DNA of 64,000 nucleotides from an uncultured Acidobacteriota bacterium (GCA_963779415.1 CAVZYA010000001.1:1376001-1440000); one strand, 5' to 3'; positions 3,334 through 60,853 are shown, counted from the stretch's first letter. Notes: a model not told the origin generated them from the sequence alone. Numbers and translations: made by a program.

Positions 3334-3479
3334 GGGGTCTGAACGCTATGTAAGCATACTGCAGAAATGGGACCTGACCCCAACGCCACTTGACCCCAAC
3401 GCCACTCGCATCTTCGACGAGAGTAATCCGCCGGCCGGAACACACGAGGCGTCGCTCAGCATCATTGGGGTCTGACCCC
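3334..3479. repeat. REP-like cluster: GGGGTCTGA...GGACCTGACCCC, 2x16-bp tandem TGACCCCAACGCCACT, palindrome GGGGTCTGACCCC
   Basis: Read directly: tandem units 3375-3390 and 3391-3406; palindrome 3467-3479. Confidence 0.8.
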
Positions 3480-3487
3480 GCTTCCAC

Positions 3488-4462
3488 TTACACGTCATGG
3501 TGTTCGATGGTTATTACGACCTTACCTTTGGCATGTCCATCTTCGAGATAGCGGACCGCTTCAGCCACGTCGCCGAGCGGGTAGCGTCTGTCGATGACGG
3601 GAGCGACCTTTCCGGCCGCAAGAAGGTCGCCCAGAAAATCCAAGTCTTCCCTGGTTATCTTCGCGATGAAGAACGTCATCTTCCTGCTGTCGATCCATGA
3701 CAGCAGGGGTCCCAGGACCATTCCCTGAAGAATCTGGGGCCAGCCGCCTCCGACCATGACGTACGTCCCGTCCCGACCGAGAGCACGCCTGTAATCGAAG
3801 ATCGAGCGATGCGAGTTCGCGCCGATGATCAGGTCGTAACGAAGGCCGCTTCGCGTGAAGTCTTCCCGGGTGTAATCGATGACCTGATCAGCGCCGAGCG
3901 ATCGCGCCCTGTCCACGTTCCCCGTGCTGCAGACGGCCGTGACGTCGGCTCCGAACGATTTCGCGATCTGGACCGCGAACGTGCCCACGCCGCCGGACGC
4001 CCCCTCGATCAGGACCTTCTGGCCGGGATGGATGCCTCCCTTGTCACGCAGAGCCTGCAGCGCGCTCATGGCCGCCACGGGGACCGCAGCCGCCTCCTCG
4101 AACGAGAGGTTGGCGGGCTTCAGGGCCAGTTTGTCCTCGGCGGCACACGCATACTCGGCGAAGGCCCCCCGACATACGCCGAAGACCTCATCGCCCGGCT
4201 TGAACCCGGTTACGGACGGGTCAACCGCTTCAACCCGGCCTGCGACATCCACGCCCGGTCGTGTGATCTTCGGCCTGCGAAGTCCCCCGATCATCAGGCG
4301 GGTGAACGCGGGCTTGCCTCTCAGGAGGCGCCAGTCGAGCGGATTCACGGAGGCCGCCCGAATCCTTATCAGGACTTCGTGCTCCTTTGGGGTCGGTTCT
4401 TCGACCTCCGTGAGTTTCAGGACGTCCGAGGAACCGTATTCCGTATTTATGATCGCTTTCAT
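3488..4462 (-). CDS. NAD(P)-dependent alcohol dehydrogenase / quinone oxidoreductase-like MDR protein
   Basis: AASVNPLD, GVDVAGRVEAV, GASGGVGTFAVQIAK, GHAKGKVVI. Confidence 0.9.
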   Translation of the reverse strand: MKAIINTEYGSSDVLKLTEVEEPTPKEHEVLIRIRAASVNPLDWRLLRGKPAFTRLMIGGLRRPKITRPGVDVAGRVEAVDPSVTGFKPGDEVFGVCRGAFAEYACAAEDKLALKPANLSFEEAAAVPVAAMSALQALRDKGGIHPGQKVLIEGASGGVGTFAVQIAKSFGADVTAVCSTGNVDRARSLGADQVIDYTREDFTRSGLRYDLIIGANSHRSIFDYRRALGRDGTYVMVGGGWPQILQGMVLGPLLSWIDSRKMTFFIAKITREDLDFLGDLLAAGKVAPVIDRRYPLGDVAEAVRYLEDGHAKGKVVITIEHHDV

Positions 4463-4507
4463 AAGCCGTTGTTCCTGCCATCTCTACTTCGTCTTAGGTA
4501 TAGCAGC

Positions 4508-4517
4508 AGTCTGACCC
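4508..4517 (+). repeat. Short REP-motif variant AGTCTGACCC
   Basis: Matches the AGACCTGACCC core; lies between divergent genes; CTACTTC occurs both upstream and immediately after. Confidence 0.45.
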
Positions 4518-4559
4518 TACTTCTACGCTGTAATCTCGGCCGGGATGCAGCCAGAGCCG

Positions 4560-5741
4560 ATGGACGCGCACGCTTCTGGACCGCAGGGATGGGTGCTCTA
4601 CGACGGCGGCTGCGGCGTCTGCGCGAGGTGGGTTCCGTTCTGGGGGCCCACGCTGGGACGGCTCGGCCTCGCCGTCGCGCCGCTCCAGGAGCCGTGGGTG
4701 GCCGCCCGGGTCGGCGTCCCGCCCGACGCCCTGCTGACAGACATCCGGCTCCTGTTCCGCGATGGTCGGCAGCTCGCGGGCGCCGATGTCTATCGGTACG
4801 TGATGCGGCGACTCTGGTGGGCCACACCGCTCTACCTCCTGGCCGCCGCGCCCTGCCTCCGCCAGCTCTTCGACGGCGCGTACCGGGCCTTCGCCGACCA
4901 CCGGCACCGGATTTCCAGGGCCTGCGGCCTGGGTCCGGAGGCGCACGAAGCGTCGGATTCGCCGGTCCGTGGTGTCGTTTCCTTACCGTATCGAAGGGCA
5001 TTTCTCACCGCCGAGTGGCGCTACCTCGTCATGCTGAACTACGAGGTGGATCCCCGAATTCTCGAGCCGCTCGTCCCGATTGGCACTGTGCTCGACCTGT
5101 GGCAGGGGCGGGCGCTCGTCAGCGTAGTGGGATTCAGGTTTCTGAGGGCGCGCCTTTTCGGTGTCGCGGTTCCTTTTCACCGGAGTTTCGACGAGGTAAA
5201 CCTCCGTTTCTACGTCCGGCGCCATCTCATGGAGGACGAAGTGCGCCGCGGCGTCGTCTTCGTGCGCGAGTTCGTGCCGCGCTCGGCCGTCGCGCTCCTC
5301 GCGCGGCTCGCCTACAACGAGCCGTATCGTGTCGTCCCGATGCGAAGCACGCTTCCGGAAGCGACGGTCGAAGCCTCTGGGCGGATCGCTTATGAATGGC
5401 GGACCGGGGAGAGCTGGGAACGCCTCGGCGCGGTCGCCACAGGTGCGGGCACGGTTCCGGCGCCGGAGTCGGAGGCGGCTTTCATTACCGGACACTATTG
5501 GGGCTACACGCGGCAGCGCGACGGGGGGACCGTCGAGTACGAAGTGGCGCATCCCGCATGGCGCGTCTGGAAGGCGGAGCGTCCGGAGCTTTCCGCCGAG
5601 CACCTCGGGCTTTTTGGCGACCCCTTCGCCCGGTCCCTCTCAGGGCCGCCAGTCTCGGCTTTCGTCGCCGACGGCTCGGCCGTCGTCGTCTATCCGCCGC
5701 GACGGTTGACATGCGGCGTGGATCGCACTGGCCGAACCTGA
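4560..5741 (+). CDS. DCC1-like (DUF393) thiol-disulfide oxidoreductase fused to DUF2071/YqjF domain
   Basis: N-term LYDGGCGVC; C-term FLTAEWRYLVMLNYEVDP..FDEVNLRFYVR..FITGHYWGYT; start 4545 or 4560. Confidence 0.75.
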   Translation: MDAHASGPQGWVLYDGGCGVCARWVPFWGPTLGRLGLAVAPLQEPWVAARVGVPPDALLTDIRLLFRDGRQLAGADVYRYVMRRLWWATPLYLLAAAPCLRQLFDGAYRAFADHRHRISRACGLGPEAHEASDSPVRGVVSLPYRRAFLTAEWRYLVMLNYEVDPRILEPLVPIGTVLDLWQGRALVSVVGFRFLRARLFGVAVPFHRSFDEVNLRFYVRRHLMEDEVRRGVVFVREFVPRSAVALLARLAYNEPYRVVPMRSTLPEATVEASGRIAYEWRTGESWERLGAVATGAGTVPAPESEAAFITGHYWGYTRQRDGGTVEYEVAHPAWRVWKAERPELSAEHLGLFGDPFARSLSGPPVSAFVADGSAVVVYPPRRLTCGVDRTGRT

Positions 5742-5777
5742 CGCCGTGGCCAGGTCGCGTCCGTTCTCTTCGCCGCG

Positions 5778-6482
5778 TCACAACCCCAGGTAAGCCTCGC
5801 GGACGCGCTGGTTTTCGAGAAGCTCCGCGCCGGTGCCGGAGAGGACGACGCGCCCCGACTCGAGGACGAAGCCCCGGTGGGCGATGCGGAGGGCATGCTC
5901 GGTGTTCTGCTCCACGAGAAGCACCGTCACCCCCTGGCGGTTGATCTCCTCCACGACCTGGAACATCTCCTCTACGAGCACCGGCGCCAGCCCCAGGCTC
6001 GGCTCGTCGAGCATCAGGATCCGGGGCCCCGCCATCAGGCCGCGGCCGATGGCCACCATCTGCTGCTCGCCCCCCGAGAGGGTCCCGGCCATCTGCCCCT
6101 GCCGCTCGCGGAGCTTCGGGAAGATGCCGAAGACAGTCTCCAGCCGCTCCGCCTGACGGGTCCGCGCCGAGGCGTGGAAGCCCCCGAGGAGGAGGTTGTC
6201 CCGCACCGTCATCTCGGGAAAGAGCTTTCTCCCCTCGGGAACGTGGATGACGCCCCGCTCGACGATCTCCATCGTGGAGCGGCTCTCCAGCGGATCTCCT
6301 TCCAGCCGGATCGTCCCGCCCTCGGGTTTGAGGAGCCCCGAAATCGCCTTCAGCGTCGTCGTCTTCCCCGCTCCGTTCGCGCCGACGAGCGCCACGATCT
6401 CGCCGGGCTGGACATCGAAGCCGACGTCCCAGAGGGCGGTGACCTGCCCGTAGCGGACCTTCAGCCCCTCGACGTGCAGCAT
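5778..6482 (-). CDS. livF: branched-chain amino acid ABC transporter ATPase, LivF type
   Basis: GANGAGKTT, LSGGEQQMVAIGRGL, LDEPSLGLAP. Confidence 0.92.
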   Translation of the reverse strand: MLHVEGLKVRYGQVTALWDVGFDVQPGEIVALVGANGAGKTTTLKAISGLLKPEGGTIRLEGDPLESRSTMEIVERGVIHVPEGRKLFPEMTVRDNLLLGGFHASARTRQAERLETVFGIFPKLRERQGQMAGTLSGGEQQMVAIGRGLMAGPRILMLDEPSLGLAPVLVEEMFQVVEEINRQGVTVLLVEQNTEHALRIAHRGFVLESGRVVLSGTGAELLENQRVREAYLGL

Positions 6483-8164
6483 CACGCCACCCGTTTCCCG
6501 AAGTAGGCGGCCAGGACCGCGGGCTCCTCCACGACGCGAGCCGGGAGCCCCTCCGCGATCTTCTCCCCCTGGTTGATCACGACCACGCGGTCGCTGATCC
6601 GCATGATCGCCTTCATGACGTGCTCCACCAGGACGATCGTCACGCCCGATGCGCGGATCCGATTGACGAGATCCGAGGCCACGTCGACTTCCGTGGCGTT
6701 CAGCCCCCCCATCGGCTCGTCCAGGAGCAGGAGGCGGGGCCCCGTGGCCAGCGCCTTGGCCATCTCGAGGCGTTTCTGGTCCATCAGCGTCAGCCGGCTC
6801 GCGATCTCGTCCGATCGGTCCGCGAGGCCGACCCGAGCCAGCACCGCCGTGGCGGCCGCTTCGGCGTCACTTCGAGCCGGGTGGCGAAGAAAGGCGGCCA
6901 GCGTCACGTTCTCCAGCGCCGAAAGGCCGGGGAACGGCTGGACGATCTGGAACGTCCGGGCGATTCCCCTCCGCGCCACCGCGTGAGGCCGCATCCCCAC
7001 GACGCTCTGCCCGTCGAGCCGGATCGCTCCCGCGTGGGGGCGGATGAAGCCGGTGACGAGGTTGAAGACCGTCGTCTTCCCGGAGCCGTTCGGCCCGATG
7101 AGCCCCAGGATCTCCCCGTCGGTCACCAAGAAAGAGAGATCGGAGACGGCGCGTACGCCGCCGAAGTGTCGGGTCAGGCCCTGAACCTCGAGCAGCGCCA
7201 CGTCAGGCTCCCGCCTCGGAAGGCCGGTGGCGAGCCGGCGGACGCGGCCCCAGATCCCTTCCGGCATGAACCGGATCACCAGCATCATGAAGAGGCCATA
7301 GAGGATGAGATGGCCCATCGGGAAGCGGTCCCGGACCAGCTCGGCGACCGTCGTGAGGAAGACGGCGCCGACCAGCGGGCCGCCCACCGTTCCGAGCCCC
7401 CCGACGACCGCGATGAAGACCATCTCCATCGAGAGCCCGATGCCGGCGACGGCGTCCGGGTCGACGTACCGGAAGTAGAACGCGTAGAAGCCGCCCCCCA
7501 TGCCGGCAAGGAAAGCGGAAAGCGCCAGCGTGACGACCTTGGCACGGACCGTGTCGATCCCCACCGCCTCGGCGGCGTCCTCGTTCTCGCGGATGGCGAC
7601 GAGGTACGCGCCGAGCCGCGAGCGGCGCAGCCATCCGGTCGCGAGGAGGGCCACGACCGCGAGGAGCGCGGCCGCCACGTAAAAGGGGGTCTGCCCCTCC
7701 CAGTTCACCGCCAGGCCGAAGAGACGCACCGGCGGAAGCGTCGTGATGAGGTAGCCGACGGACCCAGCCGTGACGGATTCCCAGTTCAACGCCACGAGCT
7801 TGACGATCTCCGCCACCGCCAGAGTGGCGAGAGCGAAGTACGGGCCGCGCAGCCGGAAACAGAGGAGGCCGATCGGGACCGAGACGAGGGCCGCCATGAG
7901 GCCCCCGAGGGGAATTCCCCACCACGGCGCGAGGCCGCCCTTCAGGAAAAGGATGATCGTCGTGTAGGCACCTACCGCGAAGAGCGCGGCGTGCCCGAAC
8001 GAGACCTGTCCGGCGAAACCGCCGAGGACGTTCCAGGCCGCGCCGAGGAGCGTCCACATCAGGATGAGGATGCAGACGTGAAGGAAGAACGAGTTCCGGA
8101 TGGAAAGTGGAATGGCGACGAGGACGGCGACGCCCGCGAGCGCGGGCAGGAACCGGCGCGTCAC
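6482..8164 (-). CDS. LivM permease in frame with LivG ATPase
   Basis: GQVSFGHA and RLRGPYFALATLA, then GPNGSGKTT and LLDEPMGGL in one frame; GTG start overlaps the livH stop. Confidence 0.85.
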   Translation of the reverse strand: MTRRFLPALAGVAVLVAIPLSIRNSFFLHVCILILMWTLLGAAWNVLGGFAGQVSFGHAALFAVGAYTTIILFLKGGLAPWWGIPLGGLMAALVSVPIGLLCFRLRGPYFALATLAVAEIVKLVALNWESVTAGSVGYLITTLPPVRLFGLAVNWEGQTPFYVAAALLAVVALLATGWLRRSRLGAYLVAIRENEDAAEAVGIDTVRAKVVTLALSAFLAGMGGGFYAFYFRYVDPDAVAGIGLSMEMVFIAVVGGLGTVGGPLVGAVFLTTVAELVRDRFPMGHLILYGLFMMLVIRFMPEGIWGRVRRLATGLPRREPDVALLEVQGLTRHFGGVRAVSDLSFLVTDGEILGLIGPNGSGKTTVFNLVTGFIRPHAGAIRLDGQSVVGMRPHAVARRGIARTFQIVQPFPGLSALENVTLAAFLRHPARSDAEAAATAVLARVGLADRSDEIASRLTLMDQKRLEMAKALATGPRLLLLDEPMGGLNATEVDVASDLVNRIRASGVTIVLVEHVMKAIMRISDRVVVINQGEKIAEGLPARVVEEPAVLAAYFGKRVA

Positions 8165-9024
8165 TTCCCCGTCCCAAAGAGCCCCGACGGCCGGTAGAGG
8201 AGGACGGCCAGGAAGAGAACGAAGCCGATCCCGTCCTTGTAGGTGCCGGAAACGTAGACCGCGCCGAGCGACTCGACGACGCCGAGGAGGATCCCTCCCG
8301 CGATGGCTCCCGGGACCGATCCGAGACCCCCGAGCACCACGATGACGAAGCACTTGACGATGAGCAGCTCCCCCACCGTCGGGTAGAGGTAGAGCGACGG
8401 GGCGAGAAGAACGCCTGCGGCGCCCGCCAGCGCCGTCCCGAGGCCGAACGTGACCATCGACACGCGCTCCACGTCGATTCCCATCAGGACGGCCGCCTCG
8501 GCGCTCTGGCTCGTGGCGCGGATGGCACGTCCCAGATCGGTCCGCGAAAGGAAGAGCCAGAGCGCCACCGTGACGAGGATGGCCAGGACGAACGCGATGG
8601 CGAGCGGAACGGCGATAACGATCCCCAGCGGGCGGAGCGGTGTGATCCCGTACGACAGGGAGATCGTCCGGTAGTCGCCGGTCCAGACGAAGAGGGCGAG
8701 GTTGGCGATGAGAAGCGACAGGCCGGCCGTGTAGAGGAGGGTGTTCAGCTCTCCGCCGGGAATGATCTTCCGGAGGAGAAACCGGTAGACGAGAGTCCCG
8801 AGAAGGAACATGAGAGGGGTCCAGACGAGGATCGAGACGAAGGGGTCCAACTTCCAGAGCGCCTGGCCCCAGAAGGCCCCGAACATCCCCAGCATCACCA
8901 TCTCGCCGTGGGCGAGGTTGATGATCCGCATCACCCCGAAGACCACGGTGAGCCCGATGCCGATCATGGCGTAGAGGGCCCCCGTCAGGACCCCGCTCAC
9001 CAGGCTCTGGGCAAACGTCTCCAT
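8161..9024 (-). CDS. livH: branched-chain amino acid ABC permease LivH
   Basis: GLTVVFGVMRIINLAHGE, GRAIRATSQ, VLGGLGS. Confidence 0.92.
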   Translation of the reverse strand: METFAQSLVSGVLTGALYAMIGIGLTVVFGVMRIINLAHGEMVMLGMFGAFWGQALWKLDPFVSILVWTPLMFLLGTLVYRFLLRKIIPGGELNTLLYTAGLSLLIANLALFVWTGDYRTISLSYGITPLRPLGIVIAVPLAIAFVLAILVTVALWLFLSRTDLGRAIRATSQSAEAAVLMGIDVERVSMVTFGLGTALAGAAGVLLAPSLYLYPTVGELLIVKCFVIVVLGGLGSVPGAIAGGILLGVVESLGAVYVSGTYKDGIGFVLFLAVLLYRPSGLFGTGK

Positions 9025-9073
9025 CAGGTCAGGGTCGCCGGCCCGTCCCGCCGAAGACCGGCGGGCCCTGCCG

Positions 9074-10297: not shown

Positions 10298-10336
10298 CAC
10301 GTTCTCCCTCTCCCTTTATTCGATTTCGCCGCCGCT

Positions 10337-12011: not shown

Positions 12012-12030
12012 GGGGTCGCGTCTCAATTAT
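12012..12030 (-). repeat. REP-motif variant GGGGTCGCGTCT
   Basis: Two mismatches to GGGGTCAGGTCT, followed by an AT-rich stretch; downstream of the kinase gene. Confidence 0.4.
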
Positions 12031-12054
12031 CTATTATAGTCACGTCGCAGGAAG

Positions 12055-14484: not shown

Positions 14485-14512
14485 GGGGTCAGGTCTTGCA
14501 CCTGTAGTCTAC
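14485..14512 (-). repeat. Inverted repeat at the 3' end of the RAYT gene, GGGGTCAGGTCTTGCACCTGTAGT
   Basis: Reverse complement of 15483-15505 with 2 mismatches; also enclosed by the CTACAGG/CCTGTAG stem. Confidence 0.85.
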
Positions 14513-15471
14513 TCGCCGACGCCATCCGTCAGATCCCTGAGCCGCCCCTTCAGCTCCGCGTTCTTCCGAAGGACGGCCTCCCCTTCGGCGGCGAGCCGCG
14601 AGGCCTGCGCCTCTCCCACACCAAGGAGAGCCCCGATCTCCGCCAGCCTGACGAGACCCCGCCTCCGAAGTATCAGCGCCACGGCCTTCCGCTCACCGGA
14701 GAGCAGGCGCGTGCGGCTCGCCAGGCTCTTGCCGTCACATCCGAGGGCCTCGAGGCACTCCTCGAACAGCTCGCCCTTGGGCCGAGGTGCGCTCTGGCCC
14801 TGGGGCCTTGGCACCTCCCGCCCCTTTCGTCCGGTGGCCCCCCGCCGGAGGGACTCCTTTCGAAACTCCTCCGATCCGAGGTAGATCTGACCCTGGACCT
14901 CTTTCCACGGCTCGTAGCCCCCGGCCGCCCCTTCCGCCACGAAACGCCGATAGGCCACCACCGCCTTGGCCCGCGTCCTGCCGAACTGATCGAGCGTCCA
15001 GGCCGTCTCGAGCCACTCCGGGGCTTCCGTCAGCCCCGCCGTCGCGCGGTAGCTGCTCCAGCGCCACTCCTTCGCCCCCCGCACGACTCCGGCCCGGACG
15101 GGGTTGAGGACGACATACCGGCAGAGCTCGAGAAGGTGGGCTTCCTTCTCGACGAGGATGGCCTTGAAGCGCCCCTGGAAGAGATGACCGGCGCGCCTGT
15201 GGGAACGATTGAAGCCCTGCGTATAGATACCGTTGAGCTGCCGCATTCCACGGGAGAGGGTCGGCTCCGGCGTTTCGAGCAGCAGGTGATAGTGGTTTCC
15301 CATCAACACGTATGCATGGAGCCGCCAGCGGAAGAGGGAGACGGTCCGGCAGAGGACGGCGAGAAACCGATGCCGGTCGCCGTCGTCGCGAAAGACGTCC
15401 CGCCGCTCGTTCCCGCGGCAGGTGACGTGCCAGACGGCTCCCGGAAATTCCAGTCGAAGAGGTCGGCTCAT
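14509..15471 (-). mobile_element. RAYT-like Y1 (HUH) tyrosine transposase with C-terminal helical extension
   Basis: HVTCRGN, AYVLMGNHYHLL (HUH), GHLFQGRFK, YVVLNPVRAG (catalytic Tyr), WRWSSY; no tnpB. Confidence 0.92.
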
Positions 15472-15482
15472 GCCATGAGCAT

Positions 15483-15540
15483 ACTATAGCTGCAAGACCT
15501 GACCCTGGCGCGCTTTGGCGCGCTTGACCCTGGCGCGCTT
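15483..15540 (+). repeat. Inverted repeat at the 5' end of the RAYT gene plus tandem TGGCGCGCTT / TGACCCTGGCGCGCTT repeats
   Basis: ACTATAGCTGCAAGACCTGACCC then TGGCGCGCTT x2, GACCC, TGGCGCGCTT. Confidence 0.85.
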
Positions 15541-40259: not shown

Positions 40260-40520
40260 GTGGCGGCCTACCGGCTGGAACTCTCACCCCGGGCCATCCG
40301 TGACCTGAAGAAGCTCCCTCCCCAGGTCCAAGTCCGCCTGAAAGGGCACATCGACGCTCTCGCAGCGAACCCGCGTCCGCGCGGCATCTCGAAGCTCAAA
40401 AACGACGTTAACGCCTACCGCATCCGCGTCGGCGACTACCGCGTCCTCTTCGAGATTCACGACCCGGTGCTTCTGGTGATCGTCCTGAAGATCGCCGATC
40501 GAAAGGAGGCCTATCGGTGA
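40260..40520 (+). CDS. RelE/ParE family toxin
   Basis: YRLELSPRAIRDLKKL..NPRP..YRIRVGDYRVLFEI..IADRKEAYR. Confidence 0.9.
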   Translation: MAAYRLELSPRAIRDLKKLPPQVQVRLKGHIDALAANPRPRGISKLKNDVNAYRIRVGDYRVLFEIHDPVLLVIVLKIADRKEAYR

Positions 40521-40573
40521 GCACCCGACAGCGCCTCGCGGTCGTCAATGTCCAGCAGCAGAGTACCGATCAT

Positions 40574-40608
40574 GGACCTGACCCAATCGTCCGTGACCCT
40601 ATCGTCCG
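40574..40608 (+). repeat. REP motif GGACCTGACCC with 2x15-bp tandem TGACCC(A/T)ATCGTCCG
   Basis: Units 40579-40593 and 40594-40608. Confidence 0.8.
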
Positions 40609-40609
40609 C

Positions 40610-40693
40610 GTCGTCTGGGCCATCGAGGAAGGCCGCAAAGCCGCCCAAGGCGTCGACAAGAACCTCATGTACGGGGAGACATATCTGGCGTGA
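40610..40693 (+). pseudogene. second copy of the gltD 3' end
   Basis: Encodes [27 protein letters not shown] versus glt[28 protein letters not shown]. Confidence 0.9.
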
Positions 40694-40735
40694 GGAGCTG
40701 ACTTGTTGAGGACTCGGCCACTGAATCGCAACTTA

Positions 40736-40806
40736 GCAGACCTGACCCTACAAGCTACAAGTTTGCAGACCTGACCCTACAAGCTCTCTGACCCTACAAG
40801 CTCTCT
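40736..40806 (+). repeat. Triple REP motif: GCAGACCTGACCCTACAAGCT x2 plus TGACCCTACAAGCTCTC
   Basis: Read directly; 17-bp units 40772-40788 and 40789-40805. Confidence 0.85.
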
Positions 40807-50978: not shown

Positions 50979-50990
50979 CCCGTGGCGGCC

Positions 50991-51028
50991 GGAGTCAGCG
51001 AGCAGACTACAGGTACAAGACCTGACCC
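50991..51028 (+). repeat. copy of the RAYT 3' end plus repeat
   Basis: 34/38 identical to the reverse complement of 14486-14523. Confidence 0.85.
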
Positions 51029-51475: not shown

Positions 51476-53713
51476 ATGAAAATCTTATGCAGAAACGCCC
51501 TTCTCGCTGCATGCATCGTCCCGGTGGCCTCTATGATGCTCTCCCACGAAGGTGACGCCGCATGTCCCTCCTTTCTGAGCGGGAAGTACTTCTCGGCCGG
51601 CACAAACCCGAACGGGGGGGTCTATCCCCAAGCGGTGGCCGTCGGAGATTTCAACGAAGACGGGAAACTGGACGTTATCGTCGCAAACGACTATACGAAC
51701 GAGTTCGCGCTCCTGCTGGGTGATGGTACCGGCGGGTTCGCCCCGCCTGTCCTCTTCTCCACGACTTTGCATCCGCAATCGATCCTCGTCGCGGATTTTA
51801 ATCGTGATGGACACCTGGATGTTGCAATTGCGAGCAATTTCATCAGTGTCGTCTCTATTCACCTTGGTACTGGACAGGGAGGCTTCGGCTCAGCAGCGAA
51901 CTTCGCGGTGTCCGGACCCTCGAAGTCATTGGTCGCAGCAGACCTGAACGGCGACGGACTTTCAGACCTCGCCGTCGTGGGTTCCAGCAGTTTCGTATCG
52001 ATTCTTCTGGGGAATGGTCTCGGAGGTTTCGCACCCCAAGTGAACATTCCGGTGGCAGGTTCCTCCCGGATTCTCGCCGCCGATTTCAACGGCGATCAGA
52101 AGGTCGATCTCGCCCTCCTCTCGGGTGTGGGTGGTTCTCCAGGGTGGATCTACATCCTGACGGGGAATGGCTCAGGGGGCTTTTCGGTGACCGGATCGTT
52201 CTCAGTACTCTATGCCCCCACTGATATGACCATCGCAGACTTCGATGGGAATGGGACGCTGGACATCGTCGTTACATATCGGAGCGAGCCGTATTCCATC
52301 GGACTCTGGCTCGGAGACGGTGCGGGAACGTTCTCGTACGGCGGACAGTATCTCCTTGAGAGCGGAACCGGCATGCCTTTTTCCGTGACAGTCGCCAACC
52401 TGAACGGAGACACGCTTCCGGACGTGCTTGTCGGCTCATTCACGTATACATCGACGACTGACGGTATCACTTCCGCCACGTATCTGACGTCGTTTCTCGG
52501 TAACGCAGCCGGCAGATTCAGTATGAACTCGATCGGAACCGAAGGCGGACCTGCCCCGTGGACGTCTGGCTACCCATACGGAATCGCGGCCGGGGACTTT
52601 AATCAGGACGGCAAGACGGATGCGGTCCTCACCGATCTTGGTAGGGGTATCTGGGTGTTCCTGAACGACACGACACCTTACCCCTGCCAGGCCTTCCCGG
52701 TTCCGGCGGGCATTGCCGAGGATGCGTATGCGAGCGAGGACACGTCGTCTGACATGAACTCCGTCCTGGAACCGGGTGAAACCGTACTGCTCACGACGCG
52801 ATGGAAAAATGTCTTCGCGGGCCCAGTCTCACTGACGGGCACCGCCTCGAACTTCGGCGGCCCGGCCGGAGCTGTGTACACGCTACTGGATGCGACGGCT
52901 GGGTATGGCACGATTCCCCCCGGCGGCTACGGCGATAGTCACCGTTTCGGCCCCTCATACCGGGTGTCCGTCTCGAATCCACCGATCCGCCCAGCCCATC
53001 ACTGGGATGTAACACTCGACGAGACGATCTCCGCAGGTCTCTTGAAGACCTGGACGCTTCACGTCGGCAAGAGCTTCACCGACGTGCCCGTCTCCGACGG
53101 CAGCTATTGCTTCGTCGAGATCCTCCTCCACAACCTGATCACTGCCGGCTGCGGCGGCGGCAACTACTGCCCTGCCAGTGCCGTCACCCGCTGGCAGATG
53201 GCCGTCTTCCTCGCCACCGCCATGGTCGGTCCAACCGGAACCGTTCCCACAACCGGAACCGTTCCCAATGTCGGCGGCTACAACTGCACGCCGGGCGGTG
53301 TCTCCCTCTTCTACGACGTCCCGCCGACGGACGGCGGCTGTAAGTTCATCCATTACATTTATGCCCAGGGGATCACGGGCGGCTGTGGCGACGGGAACTA
53401 CTGCCCTGCCTCAAACATCACCCGCTGGCAAATGGCCGTCTTCCTCACCATGGCCATGGTCGGTCCGGCTGGTTTCGTGCCGACGAGTGGGACTGTCCCG
53501 AACGTTGGCTCCTACAACTGCGACTCGGGCGGCATCTCCCTCTTCGGCGACATCCCACCGACGGACTGGGGTTGCAAGTACATCCACTACATCTACGCGG
53601 GTGGCGTGACCGCCGGCTGCGGCGGCGGCAACTACTGCCCCGCAAGCAACGTCACCCGCTGGCAGATGGCGCCGTTCCTCGTCACCGCCTTCCAGATCCC
53701 TCTTCTTTACTGA
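51476..53713 (+). CDS. exported FG-GAP repeat protein with three Cys-rich SLH-like repeats
   Basis: DFNxDGxxD repeats; GCGGGNYCPAS.VTRWQMA x3; visibly more A/T-rich codons. Confidence 0.85.
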   Translation: MKILCRNALLAACIVPVASMMLSHEGDAACPSFLSGKYFSAGTNPNGGVYPQAVAVGDFNEDGKLDVIVANDYTNEFALLLGDGTGGFAPPVLFSTTLHPQSILVADFNRDGHLDVAIASNFISVVSIHLGTGQGGFGSAANFAVSGPSKSLVAADLNGDGLSDLAVVGSSSFVSILLGNGLGGFAPQVNIPVAGSSRILAADFNGDQKVDLALLSGVGGSPGWIYILTGNGSGGFSVTGSFSVLYAPTDMTIADFDGNGTLDIVVTYRSEPYSIGLWLGDGAGTFSYGGQYLLESGTGMPFSVTVANLNGDTLPDVLVGSFTYTSTTDGITSATYLTSFLGNAAGRFSMNSIGTEGGPAPWTSGYPYGIAAGDFNQDGKTDAVLTDLGRGIWVFLNDTTPYPCQAFPVPAGIAEDAYASEDTSSDMNSVLEPGETVLLTTRWKNVFAGPVSLTGTASNFGGPAGAVYTLLDATAGYGTIPPGGYGDSHRFGPSYRVSVSNPPIRPAHHWDVTLDETISAGLLKTWTLHVGKSFTDVPVSDGSYCFVEILLHNLITAGCGGGNYCPASAVTRWQMAVFLATAMVGPTGTVPTTGTVPNVGGYNCTPGGVSLFYDVPPTDGGCKFIHYIYAQGITGGCGDGNYCPASNITRWQMAVFLTMAMVGPAGFVPTSGTVPNVGSYNCDSGGISLFGDIPPTDWGCKYIHYIYAGGVTAGCGGGNYCPASNVTRWQMAPFLVTAFQIPLLY

Positions 53714-53740
53714 AAGGTGTACTGGAGGAGAGGAGAGGTC

Positions 53741-53771
53741 CGTATAATTGGGGTCCGACCCCTATTGTACG
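53741..53771. repeat. hairpin with REP core GGGGTC-C-GACCCC between convergent genes
   Basis: CGTATAATTGGGGTC-C-GACCCCTATTGTACG. Confidence 0.7.
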
Positions 53772-53802
53772 AGTAGCCGGCCCGTCCGATCGGCGGCCGG
53801 GA

Positions 53803-54938: not shown

Positions 54939-54963
54939 GTCCCCATTATTTTCCGCTCGGGCC

Positions 54964-55794
54964 TCACTTCGCGAATTCGGCGAGCTTTCGGAGGCGGAAG
55001 CCGGGGTCGCTCTCGAAGTCGCGACGCAGCCAGCCGAGGTGGCCGGCGCCGAAGATCGCGAGGATTCGCTCGCCGGGTGAGTCGACGAGCGCGGTGATGT
55101 TGGCGTAGATCCGCATGTTCCGCCGGAACCAGTCGGCAACGAGGTCGGCGCCGGCCCAGTTTCCCGGCTCGCTGAAGTGCGCCTGCCGATAGTAGAAGCC
55201 GACGTCCGCGGCCACCTTGTCGTCGGCGTTCATGTAGAGCAGCGTTTCGAGCACGGTGTGGGACGCGAGGTACTGGTTCTGCGCCTTCACCGTCTCGCCG
55301 ATCTCGGCGAGGAGTGTGTCGAGTTCCTTCTCGCGGCCGTGGGCTTTCGCGTAGTCCAGGAGGCGCGGGAACGGGAACTCGGCGGGCTCGTCGACCGCGT
55401 AGACGGCCTTCTGGTCCAGCTCTTTGGCCAGCCGGAACCCGATCTGCTCGGTCTCGTCGCGCGTGAGCCCGTGCGTGCCCGCGAGATAGTCCGCGTAGCG
55501 CTTCGCGACGCGGTCGTCGCCCGCCTCGGCCTCCACCGCGATCTTCGTCGGACGGAACCTCTTCAGGGCCGCGACGAGCGCCGCGATCTCGGCCTGCCGT
55601 CCGGGGGCGAGGACGTCGTCGGCTTTCATGTTGAAGACGTCGCGCCCGGGATTCGCCATGTGGTAGACGCCGAGCACCAGCACCTCCGCGCGCACGGCTG
55701 GGGTCCCGGGCCTTTCCGTCGCGGCCGCCTGCGCCCACGCGCCGTTTGCGGTCCCCATTGCCAGCGCGGCGAGAACGACGAGTCGATTCACCAT
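54964..55794 (-). CDS. DUF5694-type exported protein
   Basis: VLVLGVYHMANP, FRPTKIAVE, QIGFRLAK, WFRRNMRI, FGAGH. Confidence 0.75.
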   Translation of the reverse strand: MVNRLVVLAALAMGTANGAWAQAAATERPGTPAVRAEVLVLGVYHMANPGRDVFNMKADDVLAPGRQAEIAALVAALKRFRPTKIAVEAEAGDDRVAKRYADYLAGTHGLTRDETEQIGFRLAKELDQKAVYAVDEPAEFPFPRLLDYAKAHGREKELDTLLAEIGETVKAQNQYLASHTVLETLLYMNADDKVAADVGFYYRQAHFSEPGNWAGADLVADWFRRNMRIYANITALVDSPGERILAIFGAGHLGWLRRDFESDPGFRLRKLAEFAK

Positions 55795-55910
55795 TCGCAA
55801 GCTCCTTTCGCTCCGGTCTTCCGACAGGAACGGATTCTGCGCGGGAAAGGTTCCCGGGAGCCCCGCCGGGCGGGAACCGCCGCGTTATCCTTCCGACCTT
55901 CGGAGGATTC

Positions 55911-58193
55911 ATGCGCACATTTCGGTGGAGTCCCTGTGCTCTTCTCGCCCTTCTCTTCGCCCTCGGTCCGGCGCGCCTGGCGGACGCCGCGGAGACGGCG
56001 CCTCCGGCCCCGCTCCTCGGCTTCGACGCGGCGGGCTCCGCCGCCGAGCGTGCTCTCGAGAAGACCTTCGATGCGAGCCTCGACCCTTCGGAGCAGCGAG
56101 CCTGGATGAAACGCCTCACGGCACGTCCGCACCACGTGGGATCGGCGTACGACAGGGAGAACGCCGGGTTCCTCGCGTCCCTTTTCGGGTCCTTCGGCTT
56201 CGAGACGCGGATCGAGGAGTTCACGATCCTCTTCCCGGTGCCGAAGACCCGCGTCCTGGAGATGGTCGCGCCGTCGCCGTTCACGGCGTCTCTCGACGAG
56301 CCCGCGCTTCCCGAGGACGCGACGTCAGGGCAGAAGGACGAGCAGCTTCCGGTCTACAACGCGTACTCCATCGACGGGGAGGTGACCGCCGAGGTCGTCT
56401 ACGTGAACTACGGCATGCCGAAGGACTACGAAGAGCTCGAGGCGCGCGGCGTGGACGTCCGGGGCCGGATCGTCCTCGCGCGCTACGGGGGCTCGTGGCG
56501 CGGCATCAAGCCGAAGGTGGCCTTCGAGCACGGGGCCGTGGGCTGCCTCATCTACTCCGATCCGCGGGACGACGGCTACTTCCAGGGCGACGAGTACCCG
56601 AAGGGCGCGTTCCGCAACGAGTCCGGCGCGCAGCGCGGATCGGTCGCGGACATGCCGGTCTTCCCGGGCGACCCGCTCACGCCCGGCGTGGGTGCGACGA
56701 AGGACCAGAAGCGCCTCGACCGCAAGGAGGCGCCGACGATCACGAAGATCCCCGTTCTGCCGATCTCGTGGGCCGACGCGCTTCCCTTCCTGAAAGCTCT
56801 CTCGGGTCCCGTCGCGCCCGAGGCGTGGCGCGGCGCGCTGCCCGTCACGTATCACCTCGGGCCCGGCCCCGCGAAGGCTCACCTGAAGCTCGCGTTCGAC
56901 TGGCGGATGGAGACGGTGCGCGACGTCCTCGCGGTGATGAAGGGCTCGGAGCTTCCGGACGAGTGGATCCTGCGGGGGAACCACTACGACGCGTGGGTGA
57001 ACGGCGCGCAGGACCCGATCAGCGGCCTCGTGGCCGAGCTGTCCGAGGCGAAGGCGCTCGGCGCGCTCGCGAAGGCCGGCTGGAAGCCGAGGCGCACGAT
57101 CGTGTACGCGGCGTGGGACGGCGAGGAGCCGGGTCTCCTCGGCTCCACGGAGTGGGTCGAGACGCACGCCGCCGAGCTTTCGAAAAAGGCGGTCGTGTAT
57201 CTGAACACGGACAGCAACGGCCGCGGGTTCCTCGGCGCGGGAGGCTCTCACACTCTCGAACGGCTCGTGGACGAAGTCGCGCGCGACGTCGTCGACCCCG
57301 AGACGAAGGTGAGCATCGCCGAACGGCAGCGTGCGCGCCGGCTCGTGCGGGGCTCCCCCGAGTCGAGGAAAGAGGCGAAGGAGCATCCGGGGCTGAGGCT
57401 CGAGGCGCTGGGCTCCGGATCGGACTACTCGCCCTTCCTCCAGCATCTCGGCATCGCGTCCCTCGACCTCGGTTTCGGCGGGGAGTCGGCCGGCGGCTCG
57501 TACCATTCCATCTACGATTCCTTCGACCACTTCATCCGCTTCGGCGATCCGGAGTTCTCGTATGGCGTGACGCTCTCGAAGACGGCGGGCCGCGTCGTCC
57601 TGCGCCTCGCGAACGCCGGAGCGCTCCCGTTCGCGTTCGATCCCCTCGCCGAGACCGTGGCGCGGTACGCGAAGGAGGTCGCAACGCTCGCGGACGAGCT
57701 GCGCGAGAGGACCGAGGACGTCAACCGCAACATCGCCGCGAAGAGCTTCGAGCTCGCCGCGGACCCGACAAAGACGTTCGTGGCGCCGAAGCCGAAGGCC
57801 AGCGTGCCGTTCCTGAACTTCGCGCCCCTCCAGAACGCCGTCACCGCGCTGAAGAAGAGCGCGGCCCGATACGACCAGGCCGGGAAAGGGCGCCGGCCGC
57901 CCTCCACGGCCAAGGCGAACAAGGCGCTGGACGAAGCGCTCTACACGACCGAGCGCGCACTGGTGCGGAAAGAGGGCCTTCCACTCCGGCCCTGGTACGT
58001 CCACCAGCTCTACGCGCCGGGCTTCTACACGGGCTACGGCGTCAAGACCCTTCCGGGCATCCGCGAAGCCATCGAAGAGCGCCGCTTCGAGGAGGCGCAG
58101 AGGCAGATCGCCGCCGCCTCCGAGGCGATCGAGGCCTGTGCGGCGCGGATCGACTCGGCCGCAGCGCTGCTCGCAGGCGCGCCGGCCGACTGA
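55911..58193 (+). CDS. M28 glutamate carboxypeptidase II-like peptidase (PA and TfR dimerisation domains)
   Basis: GNHYDAW, GAQDP, WDGEE.GLLGSTEW, GSGSDY, YHSIYD. Confidence 0.92.
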   Translation: MRTFRWSPCALLALLFALGPARLADAAETAPPAPLLGFDAAGSAAERALEKTFDASLDPSEQRAWMKRLTARPHHVGSAYDRENAGFLASLFGSFGFETRIEEFTILFPVPKTRVLEMVAPSPFTASLDEPALPEDATSGQKDEQLPVYNAYSIDGEVTAEVVYVNYGMPKDYEELEARGVDVRGRIVLARYGGSWRGIKPKVAFEHGAVGCLIYSDPRDDGYFQGDEYPKGAFRNESGAQRGSVADMPVFPGDPLTPGVGATKDQKRLDRKEAPTITKIPVLPISWADALPFLKALSGPVAPEAWRGALPVTYHLGPGPAKAHLKLAFDWRMETVRDVLAVMKGSELPDEWILRGNHYDAWVNGAQDPISGLVAELSEAKALGALAKAGWKPRRTIVYAAWDGEEPGLLGSTEWVETHAAELSKKAVVYLNTDSNGRGFLGAGGSHTLERLVDEVARDVVDPETKVSIAERQRARRLVRGSPESRKEAKEHPGLRLEALGSGSDYSPFLQHLGIASLDLGFGGESAGGSYHSIYDSFDHFIRFGDPEFSYGVTLSKTAGRVVLRLANAGALPFAFDPLAETVARYAKEVATLADELRERTEDVNRNIAAKSFELAADPTKTFVAPKPKASVPFLNFAPLQNAVTALKKSAARYDQAGKGRRPPSTAKANKALDEALYTTERALVRKEGLPLRPWYVHQLYAPGFYTGYGVKTLPGIREAIEERRFEEAQRQIAAASEAIEACAARIDSAAALLAGAPAD

Positions 58194-58312
58194 AGACGAG
58201 AGACGGCGGTCAGGGCCCGCCCTCCGTCCCTTCAGCCGTGTAGCATGCTCCGCTCCGTGGAACGGATCCTCCGCACGTGGACCATCACGTTTCCGGTGGT
58301 AGGTGCCCGCCC

Positions 58313-59197
58313 ATGTTGACCATCTCCGGAGTGTCGAAGAGGTTCTCGAACGGCGTTTACGGCATCCAGGACCTTTCCCTGGACGTCGAAGGCGGAGTCC
58401 TGGGCCTCCTCGGCCCGAACGGCGCCGGCAAGACGACCCTGATGCAGATGATCGCCACGCTCACGAAGCCCACGGCGGGGCGCATTTCGTTCCAGGGGAT
58501 CGACGCCGCCCGCGACCCCGAGGCGATCCGGGCGCGCCTGGGATACCTCCCGCAGGACTTCGGCGTCTACGAGAACCTCACGGCGTTCGAGATCCTCGAC
58601 TACCTCGCTCGGCTGAAGGGCGTGAGAAGCAAGAGCCGCATCCTTTCCATGCTCGAGGTCGTGAACCTCCATGCCGTCGCGCACCGCGCGGTCGGGACGT
58701 TTTCGGGCGGCATGCGGCAGCGCCTCGGCATCGCGCAGGCCCTCATCGGCGAGCCCGAGCTTCTCATTGTGGATGAGCCGACCGCGGGACTCGACCCCGA
58801 GGAGCGGGTCCGCTTCCGGAACGTCCTTTCGGAGCTGGGCTTCGGGAAGCTCGTGCTGCTCTCCACTCACATCGTCTCGGACATCGAGTCGATCGCGAGC
58901 ACCATCGCCGTCGTGAAGGCGGGCCGCCTCGTGGCGCACGACACGCCCGAGGGCCTCCTCGGCAAGGCCGCCGGCTCGGCCTGGGAGGCGGTCATGCCTT
59001 CGGAGGAGTTCGAGCGGGTGCGCCCGACGCTGACCGTGTCGAACGCCGTGCGGAAGCCGGACGGCGTCCACCTCCGCCTCGTCGCGGCCAGCGCGCCGGT
59101 GGCGGGTGCCGTGGCGGTCGAGCCCAACCTCGAGGACGCCTATCTTTTCCTGATGAGGACAGCGGGCGGCCCGGCCGCGGACGTGCGCGCGGCATGA
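58313..59197 (+). CDS. ABC transporter ATP-binding protein
   Basis: GPNGAGKTT, FSGGMRQR, VDEPTAGLDP. Confidence 0.92.
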   Translation: MLTISGVSKRFSNGVYGIQDLSLDVEGGVLGLLGPNGAGKTTLMQMIATLTKPTAGRISFQGIDAARDPEAIRARLGYLPQDFGVYENLTAFEILDYLARLKGVRSKSRILSMLEVVNLHAVAHRAVGTFSGGMRQRLGIAQALIGEPELLIVDEPTAGLDPEERVRFRNVLSELGFGKLVLLSTHIVSDIESIASTIAVVKAGRLVAHDTPEGLLGKAAGSAWEAVMPSEEFERVRPTLTVSNAVRKPDGVHLRLVAASAPVAGAVAVEPNLEDAYLFLMRTAGGPAADVRAA

Positions 59198-60795
59198 GCC
59201 CGGTTCGCGTCCTGGCGGTCGCGCGGAGCGATGCCCGGGCACGCATGCGGCGTCCCGTTTTGGCGTTCCTCCTCGTCGCCGTCCCACTTCTCGTCTACGT
59301 CGCCATACCGGACCCGCGCACGGGACGGGGGATCCTCGAGATCGAGAAGGCGCGCGCCCTCTACACGTCGCCGGCTCTCGCCTTCGCGACGGCCGGGCTC
59401 CTCCCCTTCCTCCTCGCCCTCTTCGGCTTCTACCTCGTGAACGGAGCCCTCGAGAACGACCGCCTCACGGGGATGGGGCTCGTCGCCGGCTCCACTCCGG
59501 TCTCCGATGCCGAGTACCTTCTCGGCAAGCTTCTCGGGAACATCACCCTGCTCGCCGCCGTGACCTTCGGCTTCATGACGAGCGCCATGGCCATGCACCT
59601 CGTCCGCGGAGAAGGGCCGCTCCAGCCCCTGGTCTACCTAGCGCACTACGCGGTCCTGGTCGGCCCCTCCCTCGTCAGCGTGGCCGCCCTGGCTCTCTTC
59701 TTCGAGTGCGTCCCCGCCCTTTCCGGCCGCGGGGGCGACGTTCTCTACTTCTTCGTCCTCACCGGGGCGATCCCGCTGTCGGTCGAGCCCTGGCGAGCGC
59801 CCGGCACCACCGGGATCTCGCCGGGCGCCTTCTTCGATTTCTCGGGGCTCGCCTTCGTCATGCGGGAGGTGGCGCGGTCGGCCGGCACGACCCACTTCTC
59901 GCTGCACCTCGGCTCGTCCGAGGTCACCCGGGCGACGACGACGTTTCCGGGCCTGAGCTTCACGCTCGATTCCCTGGCCGTGAGGGCGGCGTCCCTGGCC
60001 CTTCCCGCGCTTCTCTTCGGGGCGTCCGTCGTCGCATTCCGGCGCTTCGACCCGTCGCGCGAGAGGGCGAAGCGCTCCTCACCCAAGCAGGGCCCGATTG
60101 CCTTTCTCAACTCCCTGGCACGCCCGGTGACCTCGCGCCTCCTCGCGCTCGCGGGACGGCCGGGCCGCGAGCATCCCGAACGCGCGCCTGGCTTCGGCCG
60201 TTTCCTCACCGCGGACGCCACCTTGACGCTGCGTCTCCAACCGGTCCTCGTCCCCACGGCCCTCGCCGGGGCCGTCCTCTCGTTCAGTCTGAAAACAGAC
60301 GGCGTCATGCGCGTCCTCCTGCCGGTCCTCTTCGCGCTCCTCGCCGCCACCCTCTCCGAGGTGTCGACCCGCGACGAAGCCGCCGGAGTCTCGAACGTCG
60401 TCTTCGCGGCGCCGCGCGTGCGCGCCCGCTTCGCCCTCTGGAAGCTCGCCTCCGCCACGGTCGTGGCGCTCGTCCTGACGGGCCCGCCGGCCCTCCGGCT
60501 CGCTTTCTCGCGGCCGGCCGCGGCCCTCTCGGTCCTCCTCGGGACGCTCGTGGCCGCGTCGCTCGCGGTTCTCCTCGGCCTCGCGACGGGAACGCCGAAG
60601 ACCTTCCTCGTCCTCTACCTCGCCTTCTGGTACGTCGTCCTGAACGACGGCGGGCACGCGCCCGCCCTCGATTTCGCCGGCTGGTACGGGCTCGCCACCC
60701 CGGGCGTCCAGGCCGCGTACTTCGCGGCCCTGATCCTGATGGCGGCTGCGGCCTCGGCCGTTCAGGCGGCGAAGAACCGGCGGCACTCCGGCTGA
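59194..60795 (+). CDS. ABC-2 type permease-like membrane protein
   Basis: Many TMs; STPVSDAEYLLGKL; translationally coupled to the ATPase. Confidence 0.8.
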   Translation: MSPVRVLAVARSDARARMRRPVLAFLLVAVPLLVYVAIPDPRTGRGILEIEKARALYTSPALAFATAGLLPFLLALFGFYLVNGALENDRLTGMGLVAGSTPVSDAEYLLGKLLGNITLLAAVTFGFMTSAMAMHLVRGEGPLQPLVYLAHYAVLVGPSLVSVAALALFFECVPALSGRGGDVLYFFVLTGAIPLSVEPWRAPGTTGISPGAFFDFSGLAFVMREVARSAGTTHFSLHLGSSEVTRATTTFPGLSFTLDSLAVRAASLALPALLFGASVVAFRRFDPSRERAKRSSPKQGPIAFLNSLARPVTSRLLALAGRPGREHPERAPGFGRFLTADATLTLRLQPVLVPTALAGAVLSFSLKTDGVMRVLLPVLFALLAATLSEVSTRDEAAGVSNVVFAAPRVRARFALWKLASATVVALVLTGPPALRLAFSRPAAALSVLLGTLVAASLAVLLGLATGTPKTFLVLYLAFWYVVLNDGGHAPALDFAGWYGLATPGVQAAYFAALILMAAAASAVQAAKNRRHSG

Positions 60796-60799
60796 GTCG

Positions 60800-60853
60800 A
60801 GTGCTCCGGGGTCAAGTGCTCCGGGGTCAGGTCTTGCAGCTCTAGTCTGCTCG
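60800..60853 (-). repeat. REP copy with 2x15-bp tandem (minus strand TGACCCCGGAGCACT)
   Basis: AGTGCTCCGGGGTCA x2 then GGTCTTGCAGCTCTAGTCTGCTCG. Confidence 0.85.

Follow-up and report, generated by a model that had tools for sequence, protein, structure and literature searches.

Short tandem duplications that restart at one particular base were found at the outer ends of terminal inverted repeats (TIRs) in a 64,000-nt stretch of DNA from an uncultured Acidobacteriota bacterium (GCA_963779415.1, CAVZYA010000001.1:1376001-1440000), referred to below as the window. The TIRs belong to a TIRtron, in which a gene of the TIRYT type, here open reading frame (ORF) 14509-15471, is bracketed by inverted repeats; further copies of the repeat, dispersed as solo TIRs, stand apart from the gene. 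Each duplication, called a scar here, lies beyond the break in the end motif GACC^TGACCC (^ marks the break) and repeats the hexamer TGACCC together with the flanking bases that follow it (X). The statistics of the breakpoints, the link between enzyme and repeats, and the occurrence of the scar across phyla are direct observations, and the scars probably mark the site at which the TIRYT enzyme nicks the chromosome in vivo.

Tandem duplications restart at the T of TGACCC

The hexamer TGACCC alone is not enriched in the window (31 copies versus 31.5 expected). The 10-mer GACCTGACCC, in contrast, occurs in 8 exact copies and in 20 copies when up to one mismatch is allowed, versus 7.6 +/- 2.3 expected, and none of 100 shuffles of the window reaches 20. 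Alignment of the 8 exact copies revealed about 20 more conserved bases upstream, for example AGCAGACTACAGGTGCAA directly before GACCTGACCC. GACC^TGACCC(C) is the outer end of the 29-nt TIRs around ORF 14509-15471 and of the dispersed solo TIRs. The repeats and scars of the window are as follows.

3350-3374 (+): body of a solo TIR ending in GACC, adjoining scar 1
3375-3406 (+): scar 1, TGACCCCAACGCCACT twice, 16 nt, exact; phase unambiguous, unit ending in CT
12013-12046 (-): solo TIR of a variant type (TATAATAGATAATTGA GACG^CGACCC), no duplication
14486-14514 (-): left TIR of the TIRtron, reading outward ..GCAAGACC^TGACCCC; junction 14492/14491; no duplication
14509-15471 (-): TIRYT gene, predicted 320-aa Y1 HUH nuclease of the REP-associated tyrosine transposase (RAYT) type with a C-terminal helix-turn-helix domain resembling the DNA-binding domain (DBD) of DnaA
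15477-15505 (+): right TIR of the TIRtron; junction C15499/T15500
15500-15540 (+): scar 2, TGACCC+TGGCGCGCTT, then TGGCGCGCT (9 nt), then TGACCC+TGGCGCGCTT (10 nt)
40551-40578 (+): body of a solo TIR ending in GACC, within the 58-aa ORF 40517-40693
40579-40608 (+): scar 3, 15 nt twice, one mismatch (A/T)
40717-40771 (+): solo TIR of type GAATCGCAACTTAGCA GACC, with a larger-unit repeat
40772-40805 (+): scar 4, TGACCCTACAAGCTCTC twice, 17 nt, exact; three phases possible, T among them
50995-51028 (+): solo TIR without duplication, motif copy at 51019 (+)
60800-60829 (-): scar 5, TGACCCCGGAGCACT twice, 15 nt, exact; phase unambiguous, unit ending in CT
60830-60857 (-): body of a solo TIR ending in GACC (60833-60830), adjoining scar 5

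The head-to-tail copies begin at T at all five scar loci, which an earlier note on this DNA had described and which were both re-read and reported independently by Tandem Repeats Finder. Three motif copies of the window are unduplicated: 14486 (-), 51019 (+) and the variant GACG^CGACCC at 12013 (-). The more complex scar 2 would fit one 15-nt event starting at T plus one 10-nt event starting directly after TGACCC. Scar 3 is in frame in the 58-aa ORF 40517-40693, where DPIVR is encoded twice and the single mismatch is synonymous.

The duplication is tied to the motif across the home genome

The 4.36-Mb home genome was scanned without reference to the motif for exact tandem duplications of period 9-40, of which 299 were non-simple. 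Duplications at the (T/C)GACCC junction of a repeat end made up all of those with period 16 (6/6), period 17 (1/1) and period 14 (2/2), and half of those with period 15 (4/8). Five of the six period-16 duplications start exactly at T and the sixth one base later. In a whole-genome census of the arrangement hexamer-X-hexamer-X, with at most one mismatch, the duplication followed GACC^TGACCC in 8 of 58 cases, TGACCC preceded by TGCC, TACC or GGTC in 3 of 29 (all three after TGCC or TACC) and GAC(G/A)^CGACCC in 2 of 52. Among all other TGACCC it was found in 2 of 1554, both within such arrays, and among other CGACCC in 0 of 6133. The duplication is thus confirmed to be tied to the motif, far beyond chance, and its starts are not random relative to the motif.

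The genome holds about 55 repeat ends, mostly solo (counted by eye). By hand count, about 6 of 11 repeats adjacent to a TIRYT gene and about 11 of 47 solos carry scars, figures that are suggestive only and are not used as evidence here. Two repeat ends 329 nt apart (C2 1274430 and 1274759 in the home genome, G000) have clearly diverged bodies and an identical TGACCC+TCAGCCCTC, as would result from transfer of a unit from one end to the other, or from duplication of a segment whose bodies then diverged. About 12 solos of the variant type (TATAAT.GATAATTGA GAC(G/A)^CGACCC) were observed in the same genome, at C2 478654-500630, C1 1539667/1539782, C3 176571 and window position 12013 among them, and four of these are scarred.

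Anatomy of the breakpoints

Exact tandem duplications were further collected from -30 to +70 around 659 loosely defined repeat ends, a set that includes the ends of the home genome and ends beside TIRYT genes picked by protein and not by scar. At the near boundary, 20 of the 54 events include offset 0, the C^T step, and 10 of the 32 unambiguous starts lie exactly there, which together with the five window loci bears out the restart at the T of TGACCC given in the earlier note; in five further events, a later unit likewise begins with the T of a TGACCC. The picture of a single breakpoint is nevertheless incomplete, since 8-9 other events form a cluster whose starts lie at +5/+6, immediately behind the second GACC of GACC-T-GACC-CC. 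These events have periods of 7-13 and far edges again at +12 to +18, so that X is duplicated without TGACCC.

The far boundary lies 12-17 nt from the near one. The unit length of 15-17 bp stated earlier is too narrow, as units span 12-17 nt. A preference at the far boundary had also been overlooked: it is preceded by CT in 25 of 85 cases, versus 7.2% at neighbouring offsets (p 9e-10), and 25 of the 38 events that offer a CT ending 8-11 nt after TGACCC use that CT. CT or CC together precede 38% of far boundaries. The base after CT^ shows no preference (C 11, G 5, T 5, A 4), and these counts give no support to the idea that CT^ reflects priming by primase at CTG. In most exact events the run length equals the period, with no microhomology at the flanks, which points to cutting and joining and not to slippage.

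In three-unit arrays (C2 1648073; loci L055, L056, L071 and L149), the proximal unit is the older unit extended by the T, TG or TGACC with which the following unit opens. Nested arrays of this kind would be expected if copying recurred from one fixed start and stopped at variable points, other phases being formally possible. Loss of TGACCC was seen in none of 31 real repeat bodies; nine other matches to the body pattern look like chance. Within 20 kb of 75 repeat ends, a search for occupied sites returned none, and further copies of TGACCC plus 8 nt were confined to arrays or to larger duplications containing a whole repeat. The palindromic empty site GGGTCATGACCC has 0 copies.

The gene between the inverted repeats is of the TIRYT type

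ORF 14509-15471, which had been named as the candidate agent before, matches Pfam Y1_Tnp (PF01797; E 6e-11, 42.9 bits, cut-off 23) and, over residues 6-139, the NCBIfam model of REP-associated tyrosine transposases (NF047646; 82.5 bits, cut-off 80). Its translation contains the motifs NHYH (59-62), FQGRF and YVVLNP (119-124), all invariant in 10 of 10 aligned relatives. In an AlphaFold model of moderate quality (predicted local distance difference test, 69), the N-terminal domain has TnpA-REP, 4er8_A, as its best Foldseek match (E 2.5e-5, template modelling (TM) score 0.66 on the target), followed by the IS608 and ISDra2 TnpA structures, and the C-terminal domain superposes on the DnaA DBD 3pvp_A (TM 0.73, 90 columns). 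Pfam returned for the latter a sub-threshold helix-turn-helix match alone (AbiEi_4, 18.8 bits versus a cut-off of 25). From sequence and model together, the protein is predicted to be a Y1 HUH nuclease of the RAYT type with a DnaA-like DNA-binding tail, that is, a TIRYT (TnpA-Y1 subclass 2.1). The suspicion that it is the agent gains from this assignment and from the position of the motif at the outer ends of its own TIRs.

The two TIR arms (14486-14514 and 15477-15505) are 29 nt long, 86% complementary and bracket the ORF exactly. The published TIRtron consensus GGGGWSAS is matched, in reverse complement, at 8 of 8 positions by the left end CTGACCCC and at 7 of 8 by the right end CTGACCCT. 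No significant or shared hairpin was detected in any of the seven window repeats (7/7; z -0.86 to +0.44), and GTAG occurs only in some repeat bodies, so that the gene lacks flanking GTAG-tagged REP hairpins. Four full TIRYT paralogs, 60-73% identical to one another, and additional fragments are present in the genome. The TIR-flanked layout recurs at the three other paralogs, and each paralog has its own repeat body, the GACC^TGACCCC end being common to all. The closest named relatives of the gene, among the matches listed, come from Acidobacteriota metagenome-assembled genomes labelled Thermoanaerobaculia and Holophagales.

Many repeat bodies consist, by eye, of two direct 7-8-mers of which the second runs into GACC; examples are GGATCAC GGATCAC A GACC, GGCAAAA GGCAAGA CC and GTAGAAC GTAGAAT GG. 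Also by eye, the body varies by lineage, and the N-terminal nuclease domain and the TGACCCC end are constant, a distribution that would fit recognition of the repeat body by the variable C-terminal domain.

Scars recur in related genomes and in other phyla

The arrangement GACCTGACCC-N8-11-TGACCC was found 123 times in 27 of 61 genomes of the same family, and the reversed control pattern 0 times. X is repeated exactly in 58 of these occurrences, with one mismatch in 27, with two in 10 and with 3-8 in 28, where one-base shifts account for several cases; X is thus conserved with at most one mismatch in 85 of 123. Spacings of N1-7 gave 16 matches and of N12-30 gave 94, many of the latter being three-unit arrays or larger units that also include (A)AGACC. 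Units of 14-16 nt are commonest, and the distribution tails off to 12-13 and 17-19 nt. In the same-family genomes the end 12-mer RGACCTGACCCC has 1288 occurrences, so that roughly one end in 10 is scarred. It is counted 0-7 times in the seven family genomes without a TIRYT match, versus 2-137 times in 17 genomes with one.

A TIRYT alignment scan with one genome per species confirmed at least 575 relatives among 600 candidate stretches listed, and scars and TIRs were counted at the best 80 of these loci. Besides Acidobacteriota, the 80 loci represent several proteobacterial orders, Nitrospirota, Desulfobacterota and further groups; among them are isolates of Marinobacter, Marinobacterium, Duganella, Massilia, Rugamonas and Methylotetracoccus. 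The CTGACCC end with AT-rich flank (..CTGACCCC) is kept at 67 of the 80, with varying bodies. Strict scars, i.e. TGACCC-X twice in tandem, with units of 12-17 nt, were present at 14 of 142 TIR-like ends beside TIRYT genes, distributed over 13 of the 80 loci; Proteobacteria, Nitrospirota and Desulfobacterota are among the phyla with scarred ends, as are cultured isolates among the carriers. Since scars are present in isolates and in 27 genomes that were assembled independently, they are unlikely to be an assembly artefact, and the scar is a property of the enzyme-repeat system and not of one genome or assembly method.

In a DNA search of window positions 2400-4500 against five genomes of the same genus, the flanking gene alone was matched (72-85% identity), and synteny breaks at the repeat. 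The best public read run contained a fraction of 0.09 of the sampled words, and four runs gave only contigs of relatives covering genes. The exact junction of locus 1 was found, in a metagenome scan, on one unrelated contig (L127, 2438-2457), where the body AATCCAG AATCCAG A GACC is followed by TGACCC and the same 10-nt X as at locus 1 in single copy; this sharing is treated as chance. In one relative (G014), the end 12-mer lies mostly in divergent pairs 47-55 nt apart on many contigs, inverted doublets that are reminiscent of REPINs.

Comparison with described elements

TIRYTs were described as RAYT-like Y1 genes between terminal inverted repeats with the consensus GGGGWSAS, together forming TIRtrons (Di Nocera et al. 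2013, PMC3733652). They correspond to TnpA-Y1 subclass 2.1 (Quentin et al. 2018, PMC6006769), with the motifs NH[YF]H, FQ and Y[IV]xLNP and a Bac_DnaA_C-like or helix-turn-helix tail, and, by the table given there, to RAYT Group 1 of Bertels et al. 2017 (PMC5581495). The group is reported as the largest and most widespread among RAYT-like genes (PMC5581495, PMC6006769), with TIRYTs in about 15% of strains and no repeats around subclass 2.1 genes by the authors' own searches (PMC6006769); a group in Acidobacteria had been noted already in the earlier work. As far as these accounts go, the element described here agrees with them in having TIR flanks rather than REP hairpins and an end that fits GGGGWSAS, a long protein with a C-terminal helix-turn-helix or DnaA_C-like domain and the motifs NH[YF]H, FQ and Y..LNP, and several diverged paralogs per genome with moderately abundant solo repeats. 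To the TIRYT literature, which in the portions covered gives no cleavage site, activity, substrate, function or repeat-side duplication, the scar adds the duplication. The words 'duplication' and 'target site' have 0 occurrences in PMC3733652 outside the figures and supplements with TIR sequences, and in PMC5581495 'duplication' refers to gene copies in the 12 of its 23 places that were covered. Literature searches, in texts other than supplementary TIR listings, found no account of tandem scars where RAYTs, TIRYTs or other HUH enzymes nick. The earlier note's remark that the signature is undescribed agrees with these searches, but the motif and the enzyme family had been described: the gene, the inverted repeats and the GGGGWSAS end are known, and the scar and the cleavage site that it implies appear to be new.

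Escherichia coli TnpA-REP, with its REP/BIME sequences, is the closest solved fold (4ER8) and makes a C^T cut like the break proposed here (Messing et al. 2012, PMC3479197). It needs a GTAG-tagged hairpin, however, whereas the repeats here have no significant or shared one, and tandem scars are not described for REPs in the parts of that study considered. The protein here is also twice the length of TnpA-REP, with an added DNA-binding domain, and by these sequence features the gene-repeat pair is judged not to be a classical REP/RAYT pair. The IS200/IS605 elements (IS608, ISDra2) share the HUH/Y1 fold of ORF 14509-15471; the features in common also include single-strand chemistry, cutting behind a short specific sequence that remains beside the element, and the lack of a target-site duplication. 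They differ in having subterminal hairpins, asymmetric ends, a one-sided target of 4-5 nt, near-identical copies and often tnpB. Here, in contrast, inverted repeats form the ends, with the break inside the conserved end, hairpins are lacking and the paralogs are 60-73% identical, features that do not place the element in IS200/IS605 (tnpB was not searched for). In rolling-circle Rep proteins and conjugative relaxases, nicking, extension and rejoining constitute the normal cycle, as is proposed below for the scars, and the DNA-binding domain beside an AT-rich stretch resembles an origin. Their copying runs round the whole replicon, however, whereas in the present case it would break off after 12-17 nt of chromosome, and the resulting duplication would be permanent.

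A nick, a short outward copy and rejoining as the proposed origin

That nicking by the enzyme, short outward re-copying and rejoining make the scars is the explanation favoured here, with about even confidence. In this cycle, the DnaA-like domain would hold the AT-rich repeat body while the duplex opens, and the HUH domain would nick the outward-reading strand at GACC^TGACCCC, 7 nt inside the outer end of the repeat, or, less often, 5-6 nt further on after the second GACC. The enzyme would stay linked through its tyrosine to the 5' T, and a host polymerase would extend the freed 3'-OH outward by 12-17 nt. The extended strand, ideally with a C-T or C-C terminus resembling the natural leaving group, would then attack the phosphotyrosine with its 3' end, by which the old strand would be rejoined behind a fresh TGACCC and 6-11 flank bases. 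At the next replication this would become a one-sided tandem duplication starting exactly at the nick, and repeated cycles from the same nick would add further units. A biochemical model is offered by TnpA-REP of E. coli, which is reported to cut single-stranded DNA between C and T near a bound repeat, forming a 5'-phosphotyrosine and releasing the 3'-OH side, the covalent intermediate being resolvable by any 3'-OH (PMC3479197); its transfer to TIRYTs is proposed by analogy. The cycle would account for the exact start, the one-sidedness, the narrow length range and the absence of microhomology, as well as for the gain-only pattern, the CT^ preference, the nested arrays and the spread with the gene.

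Several observations weigh against this cycle. The nick, the choice of strand, the extension by a polymerase and the final joining are all steps that we infer; of the earlier proposal of a fixed nick at GACC^TGACCC followed by re-copying, the fixed breakpoint is what the data establish, and that interpretation as a whole is partly supported. The duplication had been described as always one-sided, on the CCC side, and this holds up apart from one body-side event (C2 1157069). In larger units of 19-29 nt the left edge lies inside the repeat body, upstream of the nick, with the same far edge; they comprise a 29-nt repeat at 40729-40785, which re-copies GCAGACCTGACCCTACAAGCT, i.e. part of the motif itself, and had escaped the earlier note, and units of 19-27 nt in L166, L175 and C2 481601. 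The orientation of the repeats relative to GC skew, counted by eye, shows no bias in either scarred or unscarred copies, whereas Y1 elements that depend on single strands usually show such a bias. The larger upstream-edged units, the body-side event and the missing strand bias are poorly explained by nicking, extension and rejoining. Nor is the CT^ preference predicted by a plain polymerase stop, for which reason a sequence-dependent capture step had to be added. The tetranucleotide 5' of the break varies by lineage (GACC, GACG, GACA, TGCC, TACC, GCTC, GAAC, GGCC). Finally, solos of the variant type (GACG^CGACCC) are scarred, although a TIRYT gene with repeats of this type at its sides did not turn up in the assembly, which is 92% complete.

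The far boundary is more directly explained if the same enzyme cuts twice, at C^T and at a weaker CT^ or CC^ site 12-17 nt downstream, and if the short TGACCC+X fragment, or else a sister chromatid's arm, becomes attached at the C^T site of that repeat end or of a different one. The process would then resemble IS608 peel-and-paste on a miniature scale, or would amount to unequal exchange between sister strands; IS608-type Y1 transposases are established to cut two sites and rejoin, and the X of 9 nt shared by the diverged ends at C2 1274430 and 1274759 looks as if a unit had moved. Such excision predicts, however, bodies stripped of TGACCC+X, of which there are 0 among the 31, a piece of 12-17 nt is very small for a two-site synaptic complex, and CT or CC stands before just 38% of far boundaries; two cuts are therefore considered a rather unlikely origin. 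Microhomology bears on a different possibility, replication slippage whose products selection retains, since a further TGACCC about 1.5 helical turns away would give the protein an additional site, the enzyme not being the maker. Arrays of at least three units could indeed grow and shrink by slippage once two copies are present, and the C-terminal domain resembles the DBD of DnaA, a binder of repeated boxes. Yet the first duplication would have to arise without a pre-existing repeat, and most events lack flanking microhomology; selection for a second TGACCC would accept any phase containing it, whereas the observed start is exact; in the +5/+6 class, X is duplicated and TGACCC is not; and unit lengths within arrays differ in the nested way expected of a fixed start. 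Slippage with selection appears distinctly improbable on these grounds.

A staggered double-strand break, with a top-strand nick at C^T and a bottom-strand nick about 15 nt downstream, would likewise produce what is observed, a tandem duplication that has two defined edges and lacks microhomology, if the 5' overhangs were filled and joined end to end, in the manner of a target-site duplication without an insert. Blunt end joining of this kind has little to draw on in the home genome, in which no match to the Ku family was found at 92% completeness (a control search found Ku in Bacillus subtilis); moreover, the repeat end is not palindromic and offers no recognisable site for a second specific nick on the other strand, and a lethal intermediate would be required at dozens of loci, all of which makes such breaks very unlikely. 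The size range and the sharp edges also resemble true target-site duplications, left behind when an element or repeat inserted at TGACCC with a 12-17-bp duplication and later departed precisely. Against such footprints stand the lack of any occupied site within 20 kb of the 75 repeat ends, the missing palindromic empty site and the established behaviour of Y1 transposases of the IS200/IS605 family, which make no target-site duplications, and they are regarded as extremely unlikely.

Neighbouring features of the window

No known RNA family was matched by Rfam in the window (0 matches). The downstream context of the seven window repeat copies is mixed, some facing gene starts and some gene ends (by eye), and a reading of the TATAAT-like body as a promoter was set aside. 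The ATG of a kinase gene lies 22 nt beyond the left TIR (14486-14514). ORF 40260-40520 (86 aa), which overlaps the 58-aa ORF 40517-40693 by 4 nt, is a putative toxin of the RelE/ParE type, judged from sequence features such as YRIRVGDYRVLFEI. A near-palindrome, GTATAATTGGGGTCCGACCCCTATTGTAC, occurs at 53741-53775 and in the home genome also on C1 near 249563 and 251123; it has the appearance of two repeat ends placed head to head with overlapping GGGGTC/GACCCC termini and may be a minimal inverted doublet or a relic of joined ends. A 234-nt tandem repeat (2.4 copies, 75% matches; 53138-53689) is located in the 3' part of the FG-GAP/SLH gene 51476-53713 and probably encodes repeated SLH-type modules.

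Implications for TIRYT systems

A wider reading, which is speculative and on balance unlikely, takes TIRYT repeat ends as chromosomal 'write' sites, at which a domesticated HUH nuclease would nick duplex genomic DNA at a fixed C^T and prime outward copying of the sequence beside the repeat. The 12-17-nt scars would then be abortive products, and copying that runs to the next repeat end would copy or move flanking cassettes bounded by solo repeats. If true, this would be a natural counterpart of engineered editing with a nickase and a polymerase, and a new route of gene mobilisation across many phyla.

The scars themselves provide a base-exact prediction of the cleavage site and strand of TIRYTs, and evidence that the enzyme, or something tied to the repeats, has acted on chromosomes repeatedly and in many phyla. 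They also introduce small length changes at specific sites between genes and, in at least one case, within a possible small ORF. For cultured carriers, the gain of a unit at a repeat end would serve as a simple assay of activity, and the scars offer a genomic marker by which active repeat ends may be recognised.

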